Positions 488 through 51,076 of a stretch of DNA of 64,000 nt are shown here, piece by piece. Numbering within the stretch: position 1 is the stretch's first letter; the number at the start of each line of letters is the position of its first letter. Source of the stretch: Planctomycetota bacterium (lineage in GTDB: Bacteria; Planctomycetota; Brocadiia; Brocadiales; Bathyanammoxibiaceae); the NCBI GenBank assembly GCA_016209685.1, contig JACQVQ010000006.1:3184-67183 (forward strand), given 5' to 3'. Position numbers and translations under genes: made by a program. The notes under the pieces were generated by a model. That model saw only the letters and a list, made by a program, of their open reading frames with translations, had not been told where the DNA came from and did not search any database.

Positions 488-835
488 ATGAAAACGGTTG
501 GAAAGGTATTGGTTCTTACCCTTGCAGTGTCACTGGTGGGAATGGTGTCTGGCGGGGTCCTGCCATTTTGCACCCCCGCATCCCTGGCGGCAGAGGAGCT
601 GGAACAGGTCCATATGAAGGTGAACGGTATGACCTGCGGTGCTTGTGCGGCCAAAATCAAGTCTAATCTGACCAAGCTACCTGAGGTAAAAGAGGCCGAC
701 GTAAACTCTAATAAGGGGACTGCAGATATTAGAGTTGCAAAAGGCTCAAACCACATGGCCCTTGCGAAAGCCGTGCAAGATGCAGGTTTTACAGTCTCCT
801 CCGTTGAGTGCGAATGTAATAAGGGCAAGAAATAG
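488..835 (+). CDS. Secreted HMA (MerP/CopZ-like) metal-binding protein
   Basis: The RBS aaaggaga lies upstream of the ATG. The N-terminal hydrophobic signal is VLVLTLAVSLVGMV. It has a GMTCGAC loop and a C-terminal CECNKGKK tail. Confidence 0.85.
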   Translation: MKTVGKVLVLTLAVSLVGMVSGGVLPFCTPASLAAEELEQVHMKVNGMTCGACAAKIKSNLTKLPEVKEADVNSNKGTADIRVAKGSNHMALAKAVQDAGFTVSSVECECNKGKK

Positions 836-975: not shown

Positions 976-2052
976 ATGCCTTTTGCCGCTGTAACAGTGT
1001 TGCTCACTTGCATCCTCGCATTCCCAGTCTGTTCCCAGGCCATCAGTATTGACCCCAAGGAGATATTATCTGTCGTACCTGAGGATGCCGTAAGGTCTAT
1101 AGACCACCCCAGATTTCTCCAACTGCCTGAGGCAGATGAGCAGATGTCGGATAAGGAGCCTGTCATAGGCATAAAGATAGGCAATGAAGCAAAGGCCTAT
1201 CCTGTTTACCTCCTTAGCGCCCACGAGATAGTCAACGACTCAATTGCTGGTACGGGCGTCGTTGTCACGTGGTGACCCCTCTGCTTTACTGGGGTGGTCT
1301 ACTCCAGAAATATAGACAGCGAAACGCTGGAGTTTGGAGTCTCAGGAAAGCTCTTATGGAATGCACTGCTCATGTTTGACCGCCAGACTCACTCCCTATG
1401 GACTCATATCACAGGGGAGGCCATATCCGGGAAGCTGAAGGGCAAGGCCTTAAAAGAGCTCCCTTCCACCCATACCACCTGGCAGGAGTGGAAAAAGGCG
1501 AACCCCACCACCCTTATATTGTCAAAGGACGATGGCAGTGGGAGGAGATACAATAAAGACCCTTACGAAGCCTATTACCAAGACCCATTAAAGATAGGGC
1601 TGACACCCCAAAAGCATCCGGACGTAAGAATACCCCCAAAGGATCAAGTGGTGGGAATCAAACTAGGAGAAGAGGCCAAAGCCTTTCCCTTTAGATACAT
1701 GGGCAATTTCTCAATAATTAATGACCGCCTTGGTGAGGTGAGAATCGTAGTAATCTACTCCAAAGGAAGAAAGACTGCCATAGTTTTTAATAGGACAGTA
1801 GATGGCAGGGACCTTTCCTTTGAGAAAGCGGAGGATGCTGGGGATTCCTATATGAGAGACAAAGAGACGAACACCCTATGGCTCGTCTTGACAGGTGAGG
1901 CGGTAGAGGGCGGACTCAAGGGCAAAAACCTTCAGCAAATACCCATCATGGTGTCGTTCTGGTTTGCCTGGATTGATTATTTTCCAGAGACAAAGGTCTT
2001 TCAAGACGCAGAACAATCCACACAAGATAACCTCCAAAACCTGGCAAGATGA
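976..2052 (+). CDS. DUF3179 family protein, predicted selenoprotein (in-frame UGA at 1273..1275 read as Sec)
   Basis: ORFs 976..1275 and 1294..2052 are in the same frame with no other stop between them. The joined sequence ...IAGTGVVVTW-U-PLCFTGVVYSRNIDSETLEFGVSGKLLWNALLMFDRQTHSLW puts UGA exactly where DUF3179 proteins carry the first Cys of their conserved CPLC motif. An N-terminal signal peptide is present and a hairpin follows the UGA. Confidence 0.8.
1289..1307 (+). promoter_or_regulatory. Candidate bacterial SECIS hairpin for UGA 1273
   Basis: CUGGGGU-GGUCU-ACUCCAG forms a 7-bp stem with a GGUCU loop, starting 13 nt after the UGA. As recalled, the loop resembles the E. coli fdhF SECIS apical loop. 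Confidence 0.55.
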
Positions 2053-3011: not shown

Positions 3012-5480
3012 ATGATATCAAGCCCAATAAAAGAGACCTCCATCCTTTACTCGCCTGATTACCATCGCTACAGCGTTGATAATTTAGCAATTCTACTTGA
3101 CCAGGAAGGCCCTAACTGGATAGGCGCCGATGCCCGTGGGGCAGAGATAATTGGCCTTCTTGATGGTAAAACCCCTTTAGGGGAGGTCGTCAGAACTTAT
3201 TCCTCAAGATACACGATGGAGAGCCCAAAGGCTTGGCTCCACGTCTATTCTTTTATAAGAGATGCCCTCAGACATCAGTTTGTATCTACTCAGCCTTTTC
3301 AAAGGGATAGTTACCCAGGCAGAGGTGCCTTCCTCTCTCTGAACGGGCTAAAAGAATTGTGGATTCATACCAACAACTCATGCAACCTTAGGTGCGCCCA
3401 TTGCCTGGTGGAGTCTTCTTCCTCCGGTGAATATGGGCTTTCTACTAGTGAACTGGCAGAGTTAATCCACCAGGCCAAGTCCCTGGGCGTTTCTCAGTTC
3501 TATTTCACAGGAGGAGAGCCTTTCCTAAGACCGGACCTCTTTCAGCTCTGCTCTTTCGCCATTGCCGGGGGGTCCAATGTAACCATTCTCACTAATGGTA
3601 CATTGATAAACAAAGAGACAGTAAAATGGCTAAATGCCCTTCCCCCAGGCTCAGTCAGGTTGCAGATAAGCCTGGACGGTTCTAAACCAGAGGTCAATGA
3701 CCCTATAAGGGGAAGGGGTAGCTTTGAAAGCATCCTTAGAGGCATCGGGGAGGCAGTACACGCAGGTCTTAGTCCCACTGTGGCTACAGTGCTTCTGCCA
3801 GAAAATTTGCATGACCTGCCAGAACTGCCAAGACTGCTCCACAATCTTGGTGTAACCACACATCACCTCCTTTACCCCCACCGAAGAGGGCGGGCCCTTC
3901 AAGCCCTGGGACAGCCCTCCATTGCGGAGCTGACAGAGGCCATATTTAGGGCAAGGGCGATGGCTTCGGAGTTAGGCCTAAGCATAGACAATTTTTCAGT
4001 CCTGGCTGACCGCCTCCATGCACCAAGATTTACCCAATTTGATTTAAGTACTGCCTGCTGGGATAGTCTCTGCGTCTATTCAAATGGAGAGGTTTATCCC
4101 TCCGCTGTATTCGCCGGCCATAAGGCCCTCTGTTGCGGCAATATAAGAGAGCGTTCGCTAGAGGAAATATGGCGCAGCAGTCCTACCTGTCAACTGGTAC
4201 GTTCTGCCACACTTCAGGATAAGTCCCACTGTCGGGCCTGTACTATTAAGTTCCTCTGTGGCGGTGGGGACATAGAATACGCCTACTTCGCCTCCCAGGC
4301 CAATCTCTTGGGTTTAGACCCTTACTGTGAGCTTTATAAAGAGATAATCTTCTGCCTGCTAAAGGAGTGGGTACAGGAGGCCCAAAGGAATTTAAATAGT
4401 GGTTCAAACCTCGATGCCCCCAGGGTCTATCTTGGTATGGGGGAGGGGGGTTTTTGCTGCCCGGAAGAAGCCACTCAGGCTGACGGGCCCTGGGTAAGGA
4501 CCATCCGCACTAATTGTACGGCCGGGCTGGATCGGGGACTCAAGCGCCAGGGACTACAGCAGTTCTATGCCCAGGCAGCAAAGCAACCTCAACAGGAACT
4601 CTGTTGCCCCTCCGCTTATCCCCCTGAGGAGACCCAACATGTCCCGCAGGAAGCCATAGAGAGGTTCTATGGATGTGGTGGCCCCCTGACCCTGGCGGGG
4701 TTGAGTCCGGGCGAGACCGTGCTTGACCTCGGCTCGGGAGCAGGCATGGATTGCTTTCTGGCCGCAAAAAAGGTGGGCCCTAATGGAAGGGTTTTCGGCC
4801 TGGACATGACGGATACCATGCTCCAGATATCTATGGAATACAAAGGCAAGGTCTCAGACAACTTGGGCTATGATGTAGTAAGGTTTATAAAGGGCTTCTT
4901 GGAGGAAATACCCTTTCGCTCAAGCTCGGCGGACCTGGTGATTTCCAACTGTGTAACAAACCTTTCTGCAGATAAAAGGAAGGTGTTTTCGGAGATATGG
5001 CGAGTGCTGAAAGACCAGGGCCGCTTTGTTATCTCAGACATTGTCTCAGAGACGGAGGTCCCCACCCGTTTTCGCTCCGACAAGCTCCTCTGGGGGCAAT
5101 GTCTGGCAGGGGCCCTTACGGAAGAAGAATTCCTCTGCTATCTTGAACAGGCGGGCTTCCGTGGCATTGAGATATTACATAGGCGCTACTGGAAGACGCT
5201 GGAGGGTTGCAGCTTTTTCTCCATTACCCTTCGTGGGTACAAACTTCAAGGGGCTGAACAGTGCTCCTACGATGGGCATGCGGCCATGTACTGTGGTCCC
5301 TTTAAGGCCGTGCTGGATGAAGAGGGCCACCTCTTCCCAAGGGGGGAAGCCGTTGAGGTGTGTACGGATACCGCAGAAAGACTCCAGAGGCCCCCTTATT
5401 CAAGGGCCTTTGTCATTTGCAGAACTGAACAACCTGAGGGCCCCCCCGCCAATTGTCATTCTCAGGAAAAGTGTTGCTAG
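3012..5480 (+). CDS. Fusion protein: PqqD/RRE-like N-domain + radical SAM core + SPASM domain + ArsM/AS3MT-type SAM-dependent As(III) methyltransferase domain
   Basis: A single 822-aa ORF with these motifs:
- PqqD-like: [34 protein letters not shown].
- Radical SAM: CNLRCAHC.
- SPASM: [14 protein letters not shown] plus a later DPYC.
- ArsM hallmarks: [43 protein letters not shown]. These match the human AS3MT motifs YYGCG, LDLGSGSGRDC, VVSNCVINL and LWGECLGGAL. Confidence 0.85.
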
Positions 5481-5667: not shown

Positions 5668-6156
5668 ATGCGCAACCTGTTTTCTGCCCTTTGTGTTTCG
5701 GTCCTTCTTTTATCGCTTTTTCTATCAGCTCCAGTGGAAGGACAAGAGGTTAAGACAATCGGTCTTAAGGAGTTTAATGCCCTTCTGGCAGCCAGCAAGG
5801 GAAAGGTAGTGGTTCTGGACTTCTGGGCTACTTTCTGACCCTCCTGCCGGAGGGCGGTGCCCTTCCTAAACCAGATGTACGAGACGTACAAAGGCCAAGG
5901 TTTTGAAATAATTGCCCTTTCCATAGAGGGAAGTAACGTAGAGGGAGTAAGAGCCTTTTCAAAGAAGGCAGGGATAAAGTATCCCGTCTTTATGGCAGAA
6001 GTAGACCTTCTGGAGAAGTACGGTATCCAGTACATCCCTCACCACGTCTTTATAGACAAGAAGGGGACACAGAGGCACGAAGAGACGGGCTTTTCTGAGG
6101 CAGGCGGGACGGCGTTTGAGACGAGGATTAAGGAGTTACTGAAGGAAGGTGGTTGA
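5668..6156 (+). CDS. Secreted TlpA/ResA-like thioredoxin-fold protein, predicted selenoprotein (UGA 5836..5838 as Sec; U-P-S-C redox motif)
   Basis: The RBS agaggaga lies before the ATG at 5668. The signal peptide is MRNLFSALCVSVLLLSLFLSAPVEG. ORFs 5578..5838 and 5857..6156 share a frame. The joined sequence VVVLDFWATF-U-PSCRRAVPFLNQMY matches the FWATWCPPC region of TlpA-like proteins, with UGA at the first Cys. Confidence 0.8.
5849..5865 (+). promoter_or_regulatory. Candidate SECIS hairpin for UGA 5836
   Basis: GGAGGGC-GGU-GCCCUUC forms a 7-bp stem (one G-U pair) with a GGU loop, starting 10 nt after the UGA. It is identical in the paralog at 9626..9642. Confidence 0.6.
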
Positions 6157-6184: not shown

Positions 6185-6799
6185 ATGACTCTGGCAAAGA
6201 ACCTCTTAATATTTGTCAAGTATCCCACCCCAGGAAAGGTCAAGACCCGCCTGGGTAGGGCGCTTGGCCCTGAGACAGCGGCCAGTCTCTACCGCAGTAT
6301 GGCAGAGGGTATCATAAAAAGATTGGCCCCGCTAACACGTCACTACTTTGATACCACCATCTTTTATCACCCTCCAGAGAAGGCCTTAGGGTTCAATGCC
6401 TGGTTAGGGCCAGACCTTTCCTACGCCCCCCAACAAGGCAAAGATTTGGGAGAGAGGATGTACAATGCCTTCTTGGCTACCTACCCAAGCCGGACGGTGC
6501 TTATAGGGAGTGATTGTCCGGAAATTACTGTAGAGATAATCCTCCAGGCCTTTCAAGCCCTTGAAAGTTATGATGCAGTCATTGGCCCGGCTATAGACGG
6601 CGGGTATTACCTCATAGGTCTTTCCCATCCTAGGGCTGAGCTATTTCAGGGCGTAGATTGGGGCACCGAAAAGGTCTTTCATCAAACCACCCAAAAGGTG
6701 CAAGCACTTCAACTTTCCTGCCACATTCTACCAACCCTGAGAGATGTAGACGCCCCGGAGGACATTCATGTCTTTTTACCATATCTAACAAGTGGGTGA
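6185..6799 (+). CDS. DUF2064 / TIGR04282-like nucleotidyl- or glycosyltransferase-fold protein (the family annotated as arsenosugar-biosynthesis associated)
   Basis: The N-terminus LLIFVKYPTPGKVKTRLGRALGPETAASLY and the later GSDCPEIT...VIGPAIDGGYYLIGL...VDWGTEKV match my memory of the DUF2064 consensus. Confidence 0.7.
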   Translation: MTLAKNLLIFVKYPTPGKVKTRLGRALGPETAASLYRSMAEGIIKRLAPLTRHYFDTTIFYHPPEKALGFNAWLGPDLSYAPQQGKDLGERMYNAFLATYPSRTVLIGSDCPEITVEIILQAFQALESYDAVIGPAIDGGYYLIGLSHPRAELFQGVDWGTEKVFHQTTQKVQALQLSCHILPTLRDVDAPEDIHVFLPYLTSG

Positions 6800-6897
6800 A
6801 ATTTCAGGCTAACAGGTTTCGAAGGAGTGGGCACGGAAACAGGTGCTATGGGTAGAAATACGCAAAATAGCTTAACATATACAACAATAAGAAACTG

Positions 6898-7728
6898 ATG
6901 TTCACATCTATAAGAATATTTCTAGTTATAACAATACTGCTTCTTTCCCTACCTTCAGAGCAGACATTGGCTCAATACAATGGACGATACGCTTCTAGAT
7001 ATCCTGAAGATTTTTTCAACCCTGGTGGCACAGAGGTAAACTTTAACCCCTCAATACACCAAAAAATAGGCATATTAATACAGAATCGCACTAGACTCTC
7101 GCTTTCTGAGATTGCCCACATGATATTCAAAACCGCCCCCCTTGACCGTTATAAGCGGTTTTTCTACCTTCGTATTGAGGAGGAATTCAGGGAGGATATT
7201 GCAAACAACACTATTCTTTCCACTAGGGCCTATGACTATAGCGGTAGAGCAATACCTAGGGGACTGCCTCTCTCAGAAGGACAGGGCTCTTTCAACCTGG
7301 TCTTTCTCCGGTTCAGTTTGAGGGAGGTGATCCGTTGCAGTTGCAAGGGAGTAACCATTCAAACCAACCAGGGCAATTTCGCCTATGTCGGAGAGGATTC
7401 TATACTGCACGAGGTCGGACACGCTTTTGCAGGGCTTGCTGATGAATACTCCGACCCCCGTGCAAGTGATTTTACTGCGGTAAATCTTGAAGACAGGCAT
7501 GCCCATAAGCTGAAATGGAGTGGACTGATAGAAAAGGGGTTCCTCCCCAATAGAAAGATTGAAAGAAGGGAGATAGTGGGTGGTATAGACAGAGGGAGGT
7601 TCTTGATACCCTCAAACAATTGTTACATGAACAACCATCAAAATGATGACCGCTACTGTCCGGTATGCCAGCTTGCTATAATTAGTAGGATTTCTCAATT
7701 GTCCGGTGTAACTCCTCCATGGCAATAA
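6898..7728 (+). CDS. Secreted HExxH protein with a peptidase M64-like motif
   Basis: The signal peptide is IFLVITILLLSLPSEQTLA. The motif HEVGHAFAGLADEY resembles the HExGHsFggLaDEY signature of M64 (IgA-peptidase-like) proteins. It has a C-terminal CPVCQ. At 276 aa it is shorter than typical M64 enzymes. Confidence 0.5.
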   Translation: MFTSIRIFLVITILLLSLPSEQTLAQYNGRYASRYPEDFFNPGGTEVNFNPSIHQKIGILIQNRTRLSLSEIAHMIFKTAPLDRYKRFFYLRIEEEFREDIANNTILSTRAYDYSGRAIPRGLPLSEGQGSFNLVFLRFSLREVIRCSCKGVTIQTNQGNFAYVGEDSILHEVGHAFAGLADEYSDPRASDFTAVNLEDRHAHKLKWSGLIEKGFLPNRKIERREIVGGIDRGRFLIPSNNCYMNNHQNDDRYCPVCQLAIISRISQLSGVTPPWQ

Positions 7729-7740
7729 GTACTTAGTTTA

Positions 7741-8556
7741 ATGGGAGATATGAGAGTGCACATAAACATCCTTCATTCACTGTTTATCTTTTTAGTATTT
7801 TACTTTTGGTCGTTAACGGCGCCCTGTGAGGGGCAGGAAACAGGTCTCAAAGGAGTGAACATGGATGTTGGATATGAGTTATACGGCCAGGTATTGCAGA
7901 AATACGTGAAAGATGGCACGGTGGCTTATCTGGCCCTAAGGGCTTCTCCCGAAGAACTGGATAAATACCTGTCCTGGTTAGCCCATACAGACCCAGATGC
8001 ACTAGGAACCACCGAGGAAAGACTGTCCTTCTGGATTAACGCCTACAATGCCTTTGTCCTTAAGGGAGTTTTAGACACCCTTCCTGAAAGACCTGCGGAC
8101 ATGGCAGGTTATAGTGTCAAGAAGGTTAAGGGCTTTTTTACTCATAGAAAATTTGTAGTGGGTGGAAGGTCTTATTCACTAGACGATATAGAAAACGATG
8201 TCCTCAGGAGTATGTTTAAAGACCCACGAGTGCACTTTTCCATAGTATGTGCCTCCGAGAGTTGCCCGGTACTGCAAAGCAAGGCCTTCCGTGCTGGGGA
8301 TATCCAAAGCCGTCTAGATGAGGCGACAAAGAGGTTCTTTGCTAGCGAAAACAGATTCAAAATAGACCGCGAAAATAAAGTAGTCTACCTCTCGCCGATA
8401 TTCCGATGGTTTAAGAAAGATTTTGAACAGGCCAAAGGGTCTCTTTACGACTTTATTGCAGACTATCTGGAGAACGAGGAAGACAGGGCCTTCATCAAAA
8501 AGGGAGACTTTACAATAGAGTATCTGGAGTACGACTGGAGCCTGAATATCAGATAG
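7741..8556 (+). CDS. DUF547 domain protein (secreted)
   Basis: FWINAYNAFVL ... VVGGRSYSLDDIENDVLR ... DPRVHFSIVCASESCPVL matches the DUF547 consensus as recalled. An N-terminal hydrophobic signal is present. Confidence 0.75.
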   Translation: MGDMRVHINILHSLFIFLVFYFWSLTAPCEGQETGLKGVNMDVGYELYGQVLQKYVKDGTVAYLALRASPEELDKYLSWLAHTDPDALGTTEERLSFWINAYNAFVLKGVLDTLPERPADMAGYSVKKVKGFFTHRKFVVGGRSYSLDDIENDVLRSMFKDPRVHFSIVCASESCPVLQSKAFRAGDIQSRLDEATKRFFASENRFKIDRENKVVYLSPIFRWFKKDFEQAKGSLYDFIADYLENEEDRAFIKKGDFTIEYLEYDWSLNIR

Positions 8557-8681: not shown

Positions 8682-9383
8682 GTGGCTAAAGATAATGCCG
8701 CTTCTCGGATACCAAAGGTCTCCATAATCATTCCTACATTACAGGAAGAAAATACAATAGAAAAGACACTCCTCAACCTAAGGAAGCAGGGGAATAGCCA
8801 TGAGGTCACTGTTGTGGATGGCGGCAGCACTGACTCTACCGTGGATATAGCCAGCCGTTATGCCAGGGTGATTAAAGGGCCGCCGGGTCGGGCCAGGCAG
8901 ATGAACCTGGGGGCCAGCCACGCCAGGGGAAAGATATTATTATTTCTCCATGCCGATACCATACTGCCTGAGGGGGCTGTAGACAAGGTTTGTAAAGCAA
9001 TCCAGCGGCCGGGGATAGTCGGTGGCTGTTTCAGCCTGGCATTTGACCCCCCTCACTCATTCCTTTGTTTCATTAGCCTCTTTACACACCTGCACTGGTG
9101 GTGGGTTCCATATGGAGACCAGGCATTCTTTGCTACTGCTGAGGCCTTTAACACCCTAGGGGGCTACCGGGACCTGGCAATAATGGAAGATATGGAGTTC
9201 TTCAAGAGACTTAAGAATTTAGGTAAGGTGTGTATTATCCAAGACCCAGTTATAACCTCCTCCAGGAGATTCTTAAAAAAGGGTGTATATAGACAGACTC
9301 TTCTTAACCTACTAATTTATTTAGGTTATTTATGCGGGCTAAAAGCGGATAGGTTCAAAAAGTGGTACGGAACTGTTAGATAA
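8682..9383 (+). CDS. Family-2 glycosyltransferase, TIGR04283-like (the family annotated as arsenosugar-biosynthesis associated)
   Basis: GTG start. Motifs VSIIIPTLQEENTI, VTVVDGGSTDSTV, GRARQMNLGA, LLFLHADTILP, YGDQAFF and IMEDMEF fit the GT2 / TIGR04283 pattern as recalled. Confidence 0.7.
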   Translation: MAKDNAASRIPKVSIIIPTLQEENTIEKTLLNLRKQGNSHEVTVVDGGSTDSTVDIASRYARVIKGPPGRARQMNLGASHARGKILLFLHADTILPEGAVDKVCKAIQRPGIVGGCFSLAFDPPHSFLCFISLFTHLHWWWVPYGDQAFFATAEAFNTLGGYRDLAIMEDMEFFKRLKNLGKVCIIQDPVITSSRRFLKKGVYRQTLLNLLIYLGYLCGLKADRFKKWYGTVR

Positions 9384-9444: not shown

Positions 9445-9927
9445 ATGCGCCACTTGCCTTCTGTCGTTTGGGTTCCGATACTTTTTTTCTTGCTTTCTCT
9501 GTTAGCTCAAGTAGAGGGGCAAGAAGTTAAGACTATAAACCTTAGGGCCTTAAACGACCTGCTGGGGGACAGACAAGGTAAAGTAGTGGTACTGGACTTC
9601 TGGTTCACTCGCTGACCCCACTGCCGGAGGGCGGTGCCCTTCCTTAACCAGATGTACGATACTTACAAAAACCAGGGCCTTGAGCTAATTGGACTTTCTA
9701 TAGATGAAGATGTAGAGGCCGTTAGGAGCTTTTTAAAAAAGGTGGAGATAAAGTACCCCGTCGTCGTTGCAGATCTGGACATTTCAGAGGAGTATGGAAT
9801 ACAGTTTGTACCGCATCATGTTTTTATAGATAGACAAGGCAAAAAGAGGGCTGAGGAGACAGGTTTTTCTGAGGAGGGGAAGGTAGAGTTCGAAACAAAG
9901 GTAAGGGAGTTACTAAAGGAAAGGTAA
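9445..9927 (+). CDS. Second secreted TlpA-like thioredoxin-fold selenoprotein (UGA 9613..9615 as Sec; U-P-H-C)
   Basis: The RBS aaaggagg lies before the ATG at 9445. I translated 9445..9612 by hand and found no stops: MRHLPSVVWVPILFFLLSLLAQVEGQEVKTINLRALNDLLGDRQGKVVVLDFWFTR. This is followed by UGA and then PHCRRAVPFLNQMY... in frame with ORF 9634..9927. It is a paralog of 5668..6156. Confidence 0.8.
9626..9642 (+). promoter_or_regulatory. Candidate SECIS hairpin for UGA 9613
   Basis: The same 17-nt hairpin, GGAGGGCGGUGCCCUUC, as at 5849..5865. It starts 10 nt after the UGA. Confidence 0.6.
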
Positions 9928-9974: not shown

Positions 9975-10187
9975 TTGTTGCTAATGAGCTTTTCTCGGCC
10001 TTTGAAAGTTTGTGAGACTCACGAAGCTGATAAAGAGACGGGAACACTTTGGTTAGCCTTGGCCAGTGAAGCAATGGAGGGTAAGCTTGCAGCTAATGTC
10101 CTACGGCAAATACCCAGCATGATGGCCTTTTGGTTTGCCTGGGCGGATTATTTTCCAGAGACAAAGGTCTTTCAAGACGGAGGATAG
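9975..10187 (+). pseudogene. C-terminal fragment of a second DUF3179 gene
   Basis: DKETGTLWLALASEAMEGKLAANVLRQIPSMMAFWFAWADYFPETKVFQDGG aligns with the last ~55 residues of 976..2052 (DKETNTLWLVLTGEAVEGGLKGKNLQQIPIMVSFWFAWIDYFPETKVFQD). The upstream ~280 residues of the domain are absent. Confidence 0.6.
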
Positions 10188-10479: not shown

Positions 10480-11889
10480 ATGTCATGTACCACAAAGTTG
10501 GTGTCGGCTTCACCCGCCATTAAAAAGATTATAATACCTTTGGCAGTATTTGGCATCGCTATCCTTGTATTGGATTTTTCATGGCCTGTTTTGGCTGCCG
10601 AAGATGTCGGGGCGATAAAAGAAAAGGCCAAATTCACTACTATTATGGACAAGTATGGGCTACCGCTTGCCATACTGTTTTCCTTCTGGTGGGGATTGCT
10701 TGCCAATATAGGCTCAGCCTGCATCTATCCCATGGTGCCTATTACTATCGGCTACTTTGCCAGTCAGGCAGAGACCCACGGGAAGGGATATACGGTGCTC
10801 CTCGCCTGGATGTTCGTCCTGGGGATAGCAACCCTTTACGCCCCTCTGGGGGTGCTTTCTGCCCTGGCAGGGAGGGATGTGGGTGCCTTACTGGGGAATC
10901 CCTTCTTCATCGGACCCTTTGTGGCCTTTCTCGTGGCCATGGCCCTCAGTATGTTCGGGCTATTTGAGATAAGGCTACCCGTCTTTCTTATGGACCGCTT
11001 CCATTCAGGGGGAAAGAAGACGGGAATTATTGGCACCTTTCTTATGGGCATGATCCTGGGTTTTGTGGCGGCGCCTTGTGTGGGTCCCTTTGCGGGTTCT
11101 ATCCTGGCCTTCGTGGCCACCACAGGTAATATCTTTGTGGGCCTGGCCAGTCTGTTCTTTTTTTCCCTGGGGCTGGGTATGCCTTATCTAGTGCTAGCTA
11201 TATCAGCCAAGAGCCTTGCCAGCCTGCCCAAGGCCGGGGAGTGGATAAACCGCATCAAACAATTTGCTGGGCTTGTACTCCTGCTGGTGGCCGTTTACTT
11301 CTTGAGCTTCATCATCCCCAAAGACGTTTCCTTCTTGCTGGCAGGAACGCTGGTACTTTTTATGGGTGTGTTTCTTGGCACACTGTCCTGGAGGGAGGCA
11401 TCTACTCCGGCCCTCTTCGGAAGAGGTGTTGGAATCCTGATAGGGGTTTGTGGTATTATGTTGTTCCTGCTCGGGCTACTGGGCCTCACGGGGCTATCGG
11501 GAAAATTGCCCATGACCCAGGCCCCGGGTGTACGAGCGGAGATTAAATGGGTGCCCTCCTTTGAGGAGGGTATGCGACTGGCAGGGGAGCAGGGCAGGCC
11601 AGTGTTTATAGACTTCTTTGCGGATTGGTGCCTCCCCTGCAAGGAGATGGAGGCCAATACCTGGAGGGACGAACGGGTCATAAAGGAATCGGAAAGGTTC
11701 GTTGCCATTAAAATGGACTCCTCCAAAGATGACAGTCCCGGCTCAAGGCTTAAGATAGAAAAATTCAATTCTTTTTATATACCCTACGTAGCCTTCTACG
11801 ACGCTAAAGGGAGCTATCTTGAGGGTAGGTCCATAGAAGGTTACGCAGACGCCGATACAATGCTTAAAGTAATGCAGACAATCCATTAA
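10480..11889 (+). CDS. DsbD-like thiol:disulfide electron conduit (CcdA-type membrane domain + C-terminal thioredoxin domain)
   Basis: The multi-TM core carries the two conserved Cys motifs (ACIYPMVP and APCVGPF). The C-terminal Trx domain has FADWCLPC. I prefer the ATG at 10480 (RBS aagggaga) over the maximal ORF start at 10399. No DsbD-alpha domain is visible. Confidence 0.8.
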   Translation: MSCTTKLVSASPAIKKIIIPLAVFGIAILVLDFSWPVLAAEDVGAIKEKAKFTTIMDKYGLPLAILFSFWWGLLANIGSACIYPMVPITIGYFASQAETHGKGYTVLLAWMFVLGIATLYAPLGVLSALAGRDVGALLGNPFFIGPFVAFLVAMALSMFGLFEIRLPVFLMDRFHSGGKKTGIIGTFLMGMILGFVAAPCVGPFAGSILAFVATTGNIFVGLASLFFFSLGLGMPYLVLAISAKSLASLPKAGEWINRIKQFAGLVLLLVAVYFLSFIIPKDVSFLLAGTLVLFMGVFLGTLSWREASTPALFGRGVGILIGVCGIMLFLLGLLGLTGLSGKLPMTQAPGVRAEIKWVPSFEEGMRLAGEQGRPVFIDFFADWCLPCKEMEANTWRDERVIKESERFVAIKMDSSKDDSPGSRLKIEKFNSFYIPYVAFYDAKGSYLEGRSIEGYADADTMLKVMQTIH

Positions 11890-11999: not shown

Positions 12000-12326
12000 A
12001 TGGCCGAAATATTAGGGGTTACCGACGCTAACTTTAAGACAGAGGTTCTAGAGTCTCCCTCACCGGTGCTTGTAGATTTCTGGGCCACCTGGTGCGCCCC
12101 CTGCAAGCAGATGGCCGAGATACTTGATGGCCTGGTGCCGATATATAAGGGCAAGGTAAAGATGGTCAAGCTCAACGTGGATGAGGGGACCAAGGTCGCC
12201 GCCCAGTACGGCATAACGGCCATCCCCACCCTGATATTCTTTAAGGGAGGCAAGGAGGCCGGGCGGATGGTAGGCGTAGTCTCCAGGCAGAAGCTGGAGG
12301 AGAAACTCAAAGGGCTTGCTGGCTAA
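12000..12326 (+). CDS. trxA: Thioredoxin
   Basis: 108 aa. VLVDFWATWCAPCK active site, PTLIFFKGG, typical length, RBS aaggagggg. Confidence 0.9.
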   Translation: MAEILGVTDANFKTEVLESPSPVLVDFWATWCAPCKQMAEILDGLVPIYKGKVKMVKLNVDEGTKVAAQYGITAIPTLIFFKGGKEAGRMVGVVSRQKLEEKLKGLAG

Positions 12327-12955
12327 TGAAAAACTGCATTGCAAATTGTAAATTGCAGATTTTAAATTTCAAATTTTCAATTTGCATTTTACAATTAATT
12401 GTTTTCCTGGGCCTCCCTTCCCAGGCCCAGGCGGTGTGGAAGGAACTGACCCCCAAGCAATTCCTGGAGGCCATGGAATACGGTCAGAAAGAAAAAGACA
12501 AGGCTATGGTGGACTTTGCCAGGGAATGGACGGTGAACCTCGGGGAGCAGGTAGGCTGGGCCACGCTTTACACCCCGTTTCACAGCCTGGCCTACAAGGC
12601 CCGCAAGGCGGCCGTAGAGCACCGCGAATTAACGGAAAAGGAGATTAAGAAGGCCCTGGGGGACGGAGAGACGCTGACCTTCTCGGCCACTATCCTGTGC
12701 GATGCCCTTTACTACACACGCCAAAGACCGTCCACCCTGCATCAGGGAGAAAAGGTTGTGGCCTCCTCTTATGAGTTCCTCCCCGACGTCTGCGAGAACA
12801 GCAACTTTTTCCCGGAGTCCCCGGCCTACATGGCCTCTTGTGTGTATAGGTTCCCCCACAAAGACCTCTCTCTGGAAGCCCCCATAACCCTGGTGATAAT
12901 TACGCCTACTGGAGAGGAACGCCTCTTCCCCTTTGACCTGTCCGGGATACGCTAA
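12326..12955 (+). CDS. Hypothetical secreted protein
   Basis: A long ORF with coding-like composition. The signal-like segment ILQLIVFLGLPSQAQA is partly encoded by the hairpin repeat. The start is uncertain (ATG 12326 or TTG 12353). I recognised no family. Confidence 0.5.
   Translation: MKNCIANCKLQILNFKFSICILQLIVFLGLPSQAQAVWKELTPKQFLEAMEYGQKEKDKAMVDFAREWTVNLGEQVGWATLYTPFHSLAYKARKAAVEHRELTEKEIKKALGDGETLTFSATILCDALYYTRQRPSTLHQGEKVVASSYEFLPDVCENSNFFPESPAYMASCVYRFPHKDLSLEAPITLVIITPTGEERLFPFDLSGIR
12334..12396. repeat. Tandem-unit hairpin (TTGCAAA/TTGTAAA units)
   Basis: GCATTGCAAATTGTAAATTGCAGATTTTAAATTTCAAATTTTCAATTTGCATTTTACAATT. It lies just after the trxA stop and overlaps the 5' end of ORF 12326. 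Confidence 0.7.
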
Positions 12956-49621: not shown

Positions 49622-49804
49622 AAAGGGAGGGGAGACAGCTTTCAACCTTTGGCCTGTCGGTCTTCAGACTTCGGGTTTCTAACGGCTGATTGCTGGTAGC
49701 TGACAAGGAGGGGAGATATGGGAATTTGCCTATCTCGTACCATACCAGTACGGGACTTGTTTACCGGGCTTTTTTCGGGCAGAGGGGCCGTAGCTAGTAG
49801 GGAG

Positions 49805-49819
49805 TCCGCCCCAGGCGGA
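49805..49819. repeat. TCCGCC-N3-GGCGGA palindrome (CCA centre)
   Basis: TCCGCCCCAGGCGGA. Confidence 0.75.
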
Positions 49820-49840
49820 TGCCACCACAGATTGCAGAGT

Positions 49841-49914
49841 GTTCCGAATGCGGAATGCGGAGTGCGGAGTGCGGAATTTAACTCCGCATTCCGAAATCCG
49901 AAATCCGAATTCAC
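49841..49914. repeat. Tandem-unit hairpin (GCGGAAT/GCGGAGT units)
   Basis: GTTCCGAATGCGGAATGCGGAGTGCGGAGTGCGGAATTTAACTCCGCATTCCGAAATCCGAAATCCGAATTCAC. Confidence 0.8.
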
Positions 49915-49927
49915 CCTTGTCCGCCTG

Positions 49928-51076
49928 ATGCGGATTACTGCTTACTGCCCGCCCAAAATATGGCGGATTTTCAACCTGCTGGCCCTTTTTCTCTGTGGCC
50001 TGTATAGTGCGGAGGGGGTACAGGGGGCGCAATCCGTAGAGAACCCATACCCCCTCTTCAAGCACGATGCCCAGCATACGGGCAGGAGCACCTTTCTAGG
50101 GGCCCAGAAGGCCAACGTTAAATGGAGTTACCCCACAGAAGACCACATTATATCTTCCCCAACCGTGGGGGGGGATGGTACCGTGTACGTGGGTGGTATG
50201 GACGGGAATCTCTACGCCATAAGGCCGGACGGCCATACCAAATGGTTCTACCCTGCGCAGAGCGCCATCTTTTCCTCCCCTGCCGTTGCCCAGGACGGCA
50301 CCGTTTACTTTGGCTGCCGTGATAAGGTCCTCTTTGCCGTTGGGCCGGACATGAAGGAGAAATGGAAATTCAGGATGGGCGGAGAAATCCTGTCCTCCCC
50401 AACCGTGGGCCAGGATGGCACCGTTTACGTTGGGAACTGGGATGGCAAGCTCTATGCCATTAACCAGGAGGGGGCGCTTAAATGGACGTACCAGACGGGG
50501 GACAGTATCGTAGCCTCCTCCCCTGCAGTAGCCCACGATGGCACTATCTATGTAGGTTCCAGGGACAGGCAACTCCATGCAATTGACCCGGCCTCAGGAA
50601 AAAAGAGGTGGAGCTTCCAGGCAGGGGACAAGGTGGATACCGCCCCTTGTGTTGGGCCTGATGGGACGGTCTACTTCGGCGCCAACGATGGCATCCTGTA
50701 CGCCCTCTCTCCCCAGGGAGAGCCGAAGTGGAAGTTTGAAACGGGTTCCTGGATATACTCTTCCCCTTCCCTGGGAGCTGATGGGACGGTCTACTTTGGT
50801 GCCAAGGATGGCAAGGTCTATGCGGTAAGCCCCCAGGGGCAGAAGAAATGGGCCTTCCAGACAGGGGACAGCGTCAGTTCCTCCCCGACCCTGGGTTCGG
50901 ACGGTACCGTTTATGTCGGTTCCTGGGACGGAAAGTTTTACGCCATCGGCCCGGACGGCCAGCTGAAATGGAGCTACGATGCAGGGGCCTCCATAGCCAG
51001 CTCCCCGGCCATAGACGCCGAAGGCACGGTATACGTGGGCTGTGACAGCGGCAAGCTCTACGCCTTCGCAAGGTAG
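49928..51076 (+). CDS. Secreted PQQ-like (BamB-type) beta-propeller repeat protein
   Basis: The ATG at 49928 lies after the hairpin. The signal is IFNLLALFLCGLYSAEG. About eight repeats of the pattern SSP(A/T)VGxDGTVYVGxxDGKLYAIxxxGxxKW are present. Confidence 0.8.
   Translation: MRITAYCPPKIWRIFNLLALFLCGLYSAEGVQGAQSVENPYPLFKHDAQHTGRSTFLGAQKANVKWSYPTEDHIISSPTVGGDGTVYVGGMDGNLYAIRPDGHTKWFYPAQSAIFSSPAVAQDGTVYFGCRDKVLFAVGPDMKEKWKFRMGGEILSSPTVGQDGTVYVGNWDGKLYAINQEGALKWTYQTGDSIVASSPAVAHDGTIYVGSRDRQLHAIDPASGKKRWSFQAGDKVDTAPCVGPDGTVYFGANDGILYALSPQGEPKWKFETGSWIYSSPSLGADGTVYFGAKDGKVYAVSPQGQKKWAFQTGDSVSSSPTLGSDGTVYVGSWDGKFYAIGPDGQLKWSYDAGASIASSPAIDAEGTVYVGCDSGKLYAFAR

Follow-up and report, generated by a model that had tools for sequence, protein, structure and literature searches.

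A probable selenocysteine-containing TlpA/ResA-like protein encoded across an in-frame UGA in a Brocadiales-related planctomycete

We analyzed a 64-kb stretch of planctomycete DNA (hereafter the window), which represents the dnaA-dnaN-gyrB-gyrA region, and found that positions 5668-6156 (+) most probably encode one single exported oxidoreductase of the TlpA/ResA superfamily with a length of 162 residues, in which selenocysteine (Sec), inserted by means of a SECIS element, would take the place of the attacking cysteine. Judged from the sequence, we put the probability of this reading at roughly 0.88. The in-frame UGA at the cysteine position is conserved, a SECIS-type hairpin is conserved and covaries, and the fold is intact across the UGA. 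What goes beyond these observations, namely the dependence on SelB, the export, the action as a reductase and the nature of the electron donor and of the substrate, is inferred.

The gene begins with an ATG at 5668 (+), preceded by a GAGAGGAG ribosome-binding site read from the sequence, and ends with a TGA at 6154-6156 (+), which is its genuine stop. Its 162 codons, counting that of the putative Sec57, are interrupted solely by the TGA at 5836-5838; other stops or frameshifts were not found in the open reading frame. The translation starts with MRNLFSALCVSVLLLSLFLSAPVEG-QEVK..., reaches the TGA with ...VVVLDFWATF, continues with PSCRRAVPFLNQMYETYK and ends in ...ELLKEGG, the immediate surroundings of the TGA being ...VVVLDFWATF-TGA-PSCRRAVPFLN.... 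Residues encoded by 5668-5742 (+), that is MRNLFSALCVSVLLLSLFLSAPVEG in front of QEV, form a predicted Sec-type signal peptide. In all orthologues, the N-terminal leader combines a basic n-region with a hydrophobic core of about 17 residues, and a conserved EGQE follows.

The in-frame UGA (5836-5838, +) corresponds to U57, the predicted attacking residue of a U-P-S-C redox motif. The resolving cysteine C60 of U-x-x-C (TGC, 5845-5847, +) and P124 (6037-6039, +), which lies within YIPHH, are both invariant columns in alignments A1 and A3; P124 is presumably the cis-proline of the thioredoxin fold. Residues 40-144, with U replaced by C, matched the Pfam families AhpC-TSA (PF00578, 61.2 bits, cut-off 26), Redoxin (PF08534, 60.5 bits, cut-off 26.6) and Thioredoxin_8 (PF13905, 56.1 bits, cut-off 27) with E values of about 1e-16, and these matches span the TGA. 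The top PDB sequence matches obtained with phmmer were the ResA structures 4nmu, 3c71 and 1st9. The match to 4nmu (E = 2e-16) likewise runs across the TGA and places U57 opposite the first cysteine of WGTWCKPC. Altogether, U57-P-S-C60 aligns with WC(K/P)PC of ResA and of Cys-containing homologues, and Cys fills the U57 column in 90% or more of alignment A3. The preliminary description of this DNA had located the TGA at the first cysteine of the WCxxC motif (DFWATF-U-PSC), had taken both halves for one TlpA/ResA-like fold and had proposed the comparison with Cys-containing homologues. Its coordinates are right, U57 indeed falls on the first cysteine in the alignments, and the domain matches across the TGA agree with one fold.

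Downstream of the UGA, a candidate SECIS hairpin, GGAGGGC-GGU-GCCCUUC, occupies 5849-5865 (+), with a stem of 7 bp and, at 5856-5858, the apical loop GGU. This 17-nt element, present as it had been described earlier, begins 10 nt past the UGA. SECIS prediction, which had also been proposed, was implemented from the bSECIS constraints as published (PMC13188914), that is, a loop of 3-9 nt, a stem of 4-16 bp, a G within the first two loop positions, a UGA-to-loop distance of 16-37 nt and a free energy of at most -7.5 kcal/mol. With its 3-nt loop, 7 bp, a UGA-to-loop spacing of 17 nt and -9.5 kcal/mol when folded alone, the hairpin lies within all of these limits. The arrangement exceeds what chance would produce: compliant hairpins follow only 40 of the 1591 TGA triplets of the window (2.5%). 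When the scan was confined to TGAs flanked on each side by 40 or more open codons (n = 69), four passed, namely the three SECIS candidates considered here and the TGA at 50352. The latter does not share the reading frame of the beta-propeller gene (49718-51076) and was therefore rejected as a chance match. Nothing in this DNA matched Rfam, at either gathering or permissive thresholds; to our knowledge, Rfam holds no general bacterial SECIS model. Free-energy folds of 60-nt windows favor competing hairpins and gave weak z-scores (-1.2 and -0.55), so that folding the single sequence is unconvincing alone, and it is the comparative data that carry the case.

For this comparison, we fetched the DNA behind database fragments as well as genome and metagenome loci, which yielded 10 distinct TGA-bearing orthologues and paralogues with 34-92% amino-acid identity from independent assemblies (Brocadiales-related MAGs, JGI, ENA and Logan runs). 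A metagenome scan with the C-terminal half gave just four further loci, all near-identical. The TGA is retained in 10 of 10 sequences, and in each the N- and C-terminal halves are contiguous and in one frame, with the TGA alone between them. All base-pair cells of the stem are paired across the 45-nt alignment A2 (70/70). Four one-sided changes are compatible with the stem (two from G-U to A-U, one from G-U to G-C and one from G-C to G-U), and two pairs carry double compensatory changes (GC to AU and CG to AU). As both double changes stem from one divergent paralogue, L008_ATC, with the hairpin GGAAGGA-GGU-UCCUUUC, the covariation sample is small. In the orthologue L087, the loop U of GGU is changed to C (GGC). 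The observed stem conservation values were matched by 3-4 of 500 shuffles. Synonymous identity, counted among codons encoding the same amino acid, amounted to 86% in the hairpin codons +4 to +9 compared to 54% elsewhere in the gene. Judged by these alignments, the hairpin is conserved beyond coding constraint alone in this sample of 10 sequences. The preliminary description had allowed for a hairpin that is lost in UGA-bearing orthologues and for halves that are independent genes. Instead, the hairpin is kept with compatible and compensatory changes, and the halves are joined in frame in every relative compared.

The 60-nt folds had proposed two rival hairpins, CCCUCC/GGAGGG and CACUGCC/GGCGGUG, which we rejected, with only 68.3% and 92.9% of their orthologue cells paired, respectively. 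The first of these concerns copy 1 only, i.e. the gene at 5668-6156: here, CCCUCC straight after the UGA can pair with GGAGGG, which is the 5' arm of the SECIS candidate (5839-5854), and this hairpin is the minimum-free-energy choice. Since conservation is lacking (68% of its cells paired), the pairing is probably incidental.

The scan for TGAs flanked on both sides by 40 or more open codons also recovered two further genes. One is a Sec-TlpA paralogue at 9445-9927 (+), with a UGA at 9613-9615 (DFWFTR-U-PHC), a hairpin at 9626-9642 that is the same as in copy 1 and a protein that is 63% identical. We additionally observed that 23 nt over the hairpin are identical base-for-base in copies 1 and 2, while the gene has otherwise diverged. 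The other is a candidate DUF3179 selenoprotein gene at 976-2052 (+), with a UGA at 1273-1275 (VTW-U-PLC), a Pfam DUF3179 match across the TGA (4e-94) and a hairpin at 1289-1307 (+), CUGGGGU(G)-GUC-(U)ACUCCAG, with -8.4 kcal/mol and a G-U/G loop. The TGA of the DUF3179 gene and the sequence downstream of it are unchanged in the near-identical locus L001. In all three SECIS candidates, the apical loop starts with G-G/U and lies 17-21 nt past the UGA. This is a SelB-type signature and more informative than the UGA-CCC context to which attention had been drawn before. It is true that CCC follows all three UGAs in the window, where it gives U-P-x-C motifs, but it is not a context shared among orthologues. 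The codon after the UGA is CCA in L087 and L091 and GCC in one Sec paralogue (U-A-T-C). We therefore rejected UGA-CCC as a recoding context and regard the Pro codon as a remnant of an ancestral C-P-x-C motif rather than a recoding signal.

In relatives, two or three TlpA paralogues form tandem arrays with Sec, Ser, Ala or Cys at the one position. Ser copies are found in L099 (8001-8483, with TCA, one step from TGA, at 8166-8168) and L089 (5320-5751, with TCT at 5434-5436), an Ala copy in L100 (330-830, GCC) and a Cys copy in L008 (~6477-6965, TGT), with another Cys copy in L102. A more divergent Sec paralogue with 34% identity and the motif FFSPF-U-ATC, from which both double changes derive, occurs in L008 (5633) and L102 (179). 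The Ser and Cys copies that we folded are without the hairpin, with free energies of 0, -2.3 and -3.1 kcal/mol compared to -9.5 and -8.9 kcal/mol where it is present. Their downstream residues are similar (CR-N/K-AVPFL), but they are encoded by different codons.

An alternative to Sec insertion is a SelB-independent readthrough, in which a near-cognate tRNA would place Trp or Cys at the UGA, stimulated by the hairpin, and a W/C-P-S-C protein without selenium would result. Such a process would be helped by the weak termination context UGA-C, as C follows the UGA in 9 of 10 sequences. It would also accord with the absence of Sec machinery from the window and the fetched loci, where selA, selB, selD and tRNA-Sec were not detected using ARAGORN and Pfam (40 window ORFs). 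However, the hairpin has the features of a SelB-type element, namely the G-G/U loop, the spacing and the stability, and the UGA lies exactly at the redox cysteine, for which homologues have Cys codons. Moreover, the same arrangement recurs in three genes of the window, and the clade keeps TGA even though a Cys codon is one step away and cheaper. On balance, we consider readthrough of this kind quite improbable compared to Sec insertion.

The nearest database proteins are C-terminal fragments of 90-99 residues with 68-92% identity, which are short because gene calling broke off at the TGA. Cys homologues of full length, with the motif WATWCPPC, reach an identity of 47% at most. In every public record found, the gene and its relatives are called as pieces of ~55 and ~95 residues (P0001-P0005, P0044-P0047). 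That public annotation consists of fragments only, such as P0001, a 99-residue "TlpA family protein disulfide reductase", would be in line with a pseudogene, i.e. a TlpA gene killed by a nonsense mutation, or with an assembly error. Yet independent assemblies show the identical TGA in 10 distinct sequences, both halves are conserved with many synonymous differences elsewhere, the upstream half does not evolve neutrally, and neither a further stop nor a frameshift accompanies the TGA. The fragments could also be read as two genes, one for an exported peptide of 56 residues and one for a protein of 99 residues that starts at GTG 5857, the hairpin then being a terminator or attenuator, and ORF finders do list 5857-6156 as a GTG-initiated ORF. 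This split, however, would fall inside the thioredoxin active site and leave each half an incomplete fold. The proposed start is a Val codon of the conserved RRAVPF, which is GCG in L087, it is without a ribosome-binding site, and the halves are separated in no relative. The conservation of the TGA, the position of the split and the identity of the GTG as a Val codon therefore make the pseudogene and sequencing-error readings very unlikely, and the two-gene reading is hardly more credible. A reassignment of UGA in the code of this organism, for instance to Trp or Gly, might be suspected from several in-frame TGAs within one window, but we rejected it, its probability being close to negligible, because 13 of 39 Pfam-supported window genes, 5668-6156 included, end in TGA, and in-frame TGAs occur only at redox-Cys positions followed by a hairpin.

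Under the preferred reading, Sec insertion at U57, the mRNA hairpin at 5849-5865 would recruit SelB together with Sec-tRNA(Sec), and with SelB bound, the UGA at 5836-5838 would be decoded as Sec instead of stop. The terminal UGA at 6154-6156, which has no such hairpin, would lead to normal termination. The predicted signal peptide would direct the protein to export by the Sec pathway. Outside the cytoplasm, the U57 selenolate may attack substrate disulfides or metal(loid)-thiol adducts, and C60 would resolve the intermediate, giving a selenenylsulfide. Re-reduction would most likely be carried out by a DsbD-like membrane protein encoded at 10480-11889 (+; Pfam DsbD_TM 1e-43, Thioredoxin_7 2e-14), which has two transmembrane cysteines in DsbD_TM and a C-terminal thioredoxin-like domain with WCLPC; that it is the likely reductant of Sec-TlpA is suggested by proximity only. 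The electrons for the DsbD-like protein would in turn be supplied by a cytoplasmic-type thioredoxin encoded at 12000-12326 (+), which we recognized from its translation (WCAPC) and for which the same gene in L001 has a Pfam Thioredoxin match; it is the likely donor.

Further genes cluster around both Sec-TlpA copies. They encode HMA proteins, the Sec-DUF3179 protein, a dual-specificity phosphatase, a radical-SAM-SPASM/ArsM fusion, TIGR04282 and TIGR04283 "arsenosugar" glycosyltransferases and a DUF547 protein. The HMA genes at 2-295 and 488-835 (+), upstream of the DUF3179 selenoprotein gene, are a tandem of exported-looking MerP/CopZ-like proteins (GMTCxxC) with weak matches to a UxxU metal-binding (seleno)protein model, in which the residues are Cys here. 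The fusion at 3012-5480 (+) comprises 822 residues, combines a radical-SAM/SPASM part with an ArsM-like arsenite methyltransferase part and ends in ...EKCC; ArsS is absent from its 25 best NCBIfam matches. It is flanked by the genes at 6185-6799, 7741-8556 and 8682-9383, which encode the TIGR04282/TIGR04283 "arsenosugar biosynthesis" glycosyltransferases and the DUF547 protein, and together these genes may form an unusual cluster of the organoarsenical type. Between the two glycosyltransferase genes, 6898-7728 (+) encodes a predicted exported protein of 276 residues with a zinc-metalloprotease-like motif, HEVGHAF, and a below-threshold match to Peptidase_M64 only. Directly after TlpA paralogue 2, a 70-codon reading frame at 9975-10187 (+) corresponds to a DUF3179 C-terminal remnant (…FWFAWADYFPETKVFQDGG), which resembles a scar left when the DUF3179...TlpA segment was duplicated in part. 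Finally, 12326-12955 (+) encodes a protein of a 160-209-residue family that has no Pfam match. Its homologues in L008, L089, L090, L091 and L094 lie 2-3 kb from the TlpA arrays and adjoin a gene of the HGD-D type (2-hydroxyglutaryl-CoA dehydratase-like), so that a conserved linkage of this family to the TlpA arrays is suggested.

One might combine the Sec-TlpA pair, the Sec-DUF3179 protein, the HMA metallochaperones, the DsbD-like/thioredoxin relay, the radical-SAM-SPASM/ArsM fusion and the TIGR04282/TIGR04283 proteins into a dedicated selenium-dependent extracytoplasmic organo-arsenic/organo-selenium module. If this were true, the module would serve the synthesis or detoxification of organo-arsenic (or organo-selenium) compounds, and Sec would deal with As(III)/Se-thiol adducts rather than with ordinary protein disulfides. 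In relatives, the TlpA array is placed after dnaK-clpB. Because their neighborhood differs, the tie to the DsbD-like and arsenic-type genes seen here is weak, and we regard the module as an unlikely, speculative proposal.

The practical value of these results is one of annotation, as they would provide two TlpA-like selenoproteins and one DUF3179 selenoprotein for a Brocadiales-related planctomycete. Three selenoproteins would imply Sec decoding in this clade. In addition, the Sec/Ser/Ala/Cys arrays represent a small natural experiment, in which the SECIS hairpin comes and goes with the UGA. What is known about recoding and about thioredoxin-fold selenoproteins is left unchanged by the gene at 5668-6156.

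Selenoproteins of this kind have been described before. UxxC thiol-disulfide isomerase-like (TlpA-like, cd02966 / Thioredoxin_8) selenoproteins were reported by Zhang, Fomenko and Gladyshev in 2005 (PMC1088965), and the TlpA-like UxxC family is listed in PMC13188914 and PMC9312934. Both a "UGC-containing TlpA family" and "DUF3179, PF11376, UxxC/T" are listed selenoprotein families, and Sec usage is documented for some Planctomycetes. The protein encoded at 5668-6156 shares with the UxxC TlpA-like family the fold, the single putative Sec at the first position of UxxC, the widespread Cys homologues and the SECIS candidate immediately downstream in the coding sequence. In contrast to that family, the clade described here is confined to Brocadiales-related Planctomycetota, has the motif U-P-[S/H]-C, with the redox residue preceded by F, R or Y where W is usual, and lies beside Ser, Ala and Cys paralogues in tandem arrays. 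Published examples of the family are MGB1650493.1 and MAK15852.1, to which the protein may be orthologous.

With ResA of Bacillus subtilis, TlpA of Bradyrhizobium and CcmG/DsbE, the protein has in common the fold, the (predicted) exported location, the W-x-x-C-x-x-C architecture and the conserved proline, whereas its N-terminal Cys would be replaced by Sec. Among the genes examined beside 5668-6156, we did not find ccsA or ccsB of cytochrome-c maturation. The scores against the corresponding NCBIfam models lie below the cut-offs for ResA (PRK03147, 86.7 bits against 170), TlpA (NF047696, 48.7 against 230), DsbE (TIGR00385, 35.7 against 123) and StoA (52.6 against 210). The ResA-like WAxxUGC protein (NF041054) is also TlpA/ResA-like with Sec in the active-site region, but it has UGC instead of UPxC and 354 instead of 162 residues. 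With 47 bits against a cut-off of 300 and a U-P-S-C motif, we rejected 5668-6156 as a member. Being below the ResA, TlpA, DsbE and WAxxUGC cut-offs, the protein is thus best described as a superfamily member rather than as an equivalog of any of these.

The hairpin at 5849-5865 resembles the canonical SECIS of the E. coli fdhF type in being a stem-loop within the coding sequence past the UGA, with a loop starting G-G-U. It differs from it in its compact, perfect 7-bp stem, its 3-nt loop and the absence of a bulged U. Overall, since the UxxC TlpA-like and DUF3179 families are both listed, the gene adds to a known kind, and 5668-6156 is a mis-annotated addition to selenoprotein families that have already been published.
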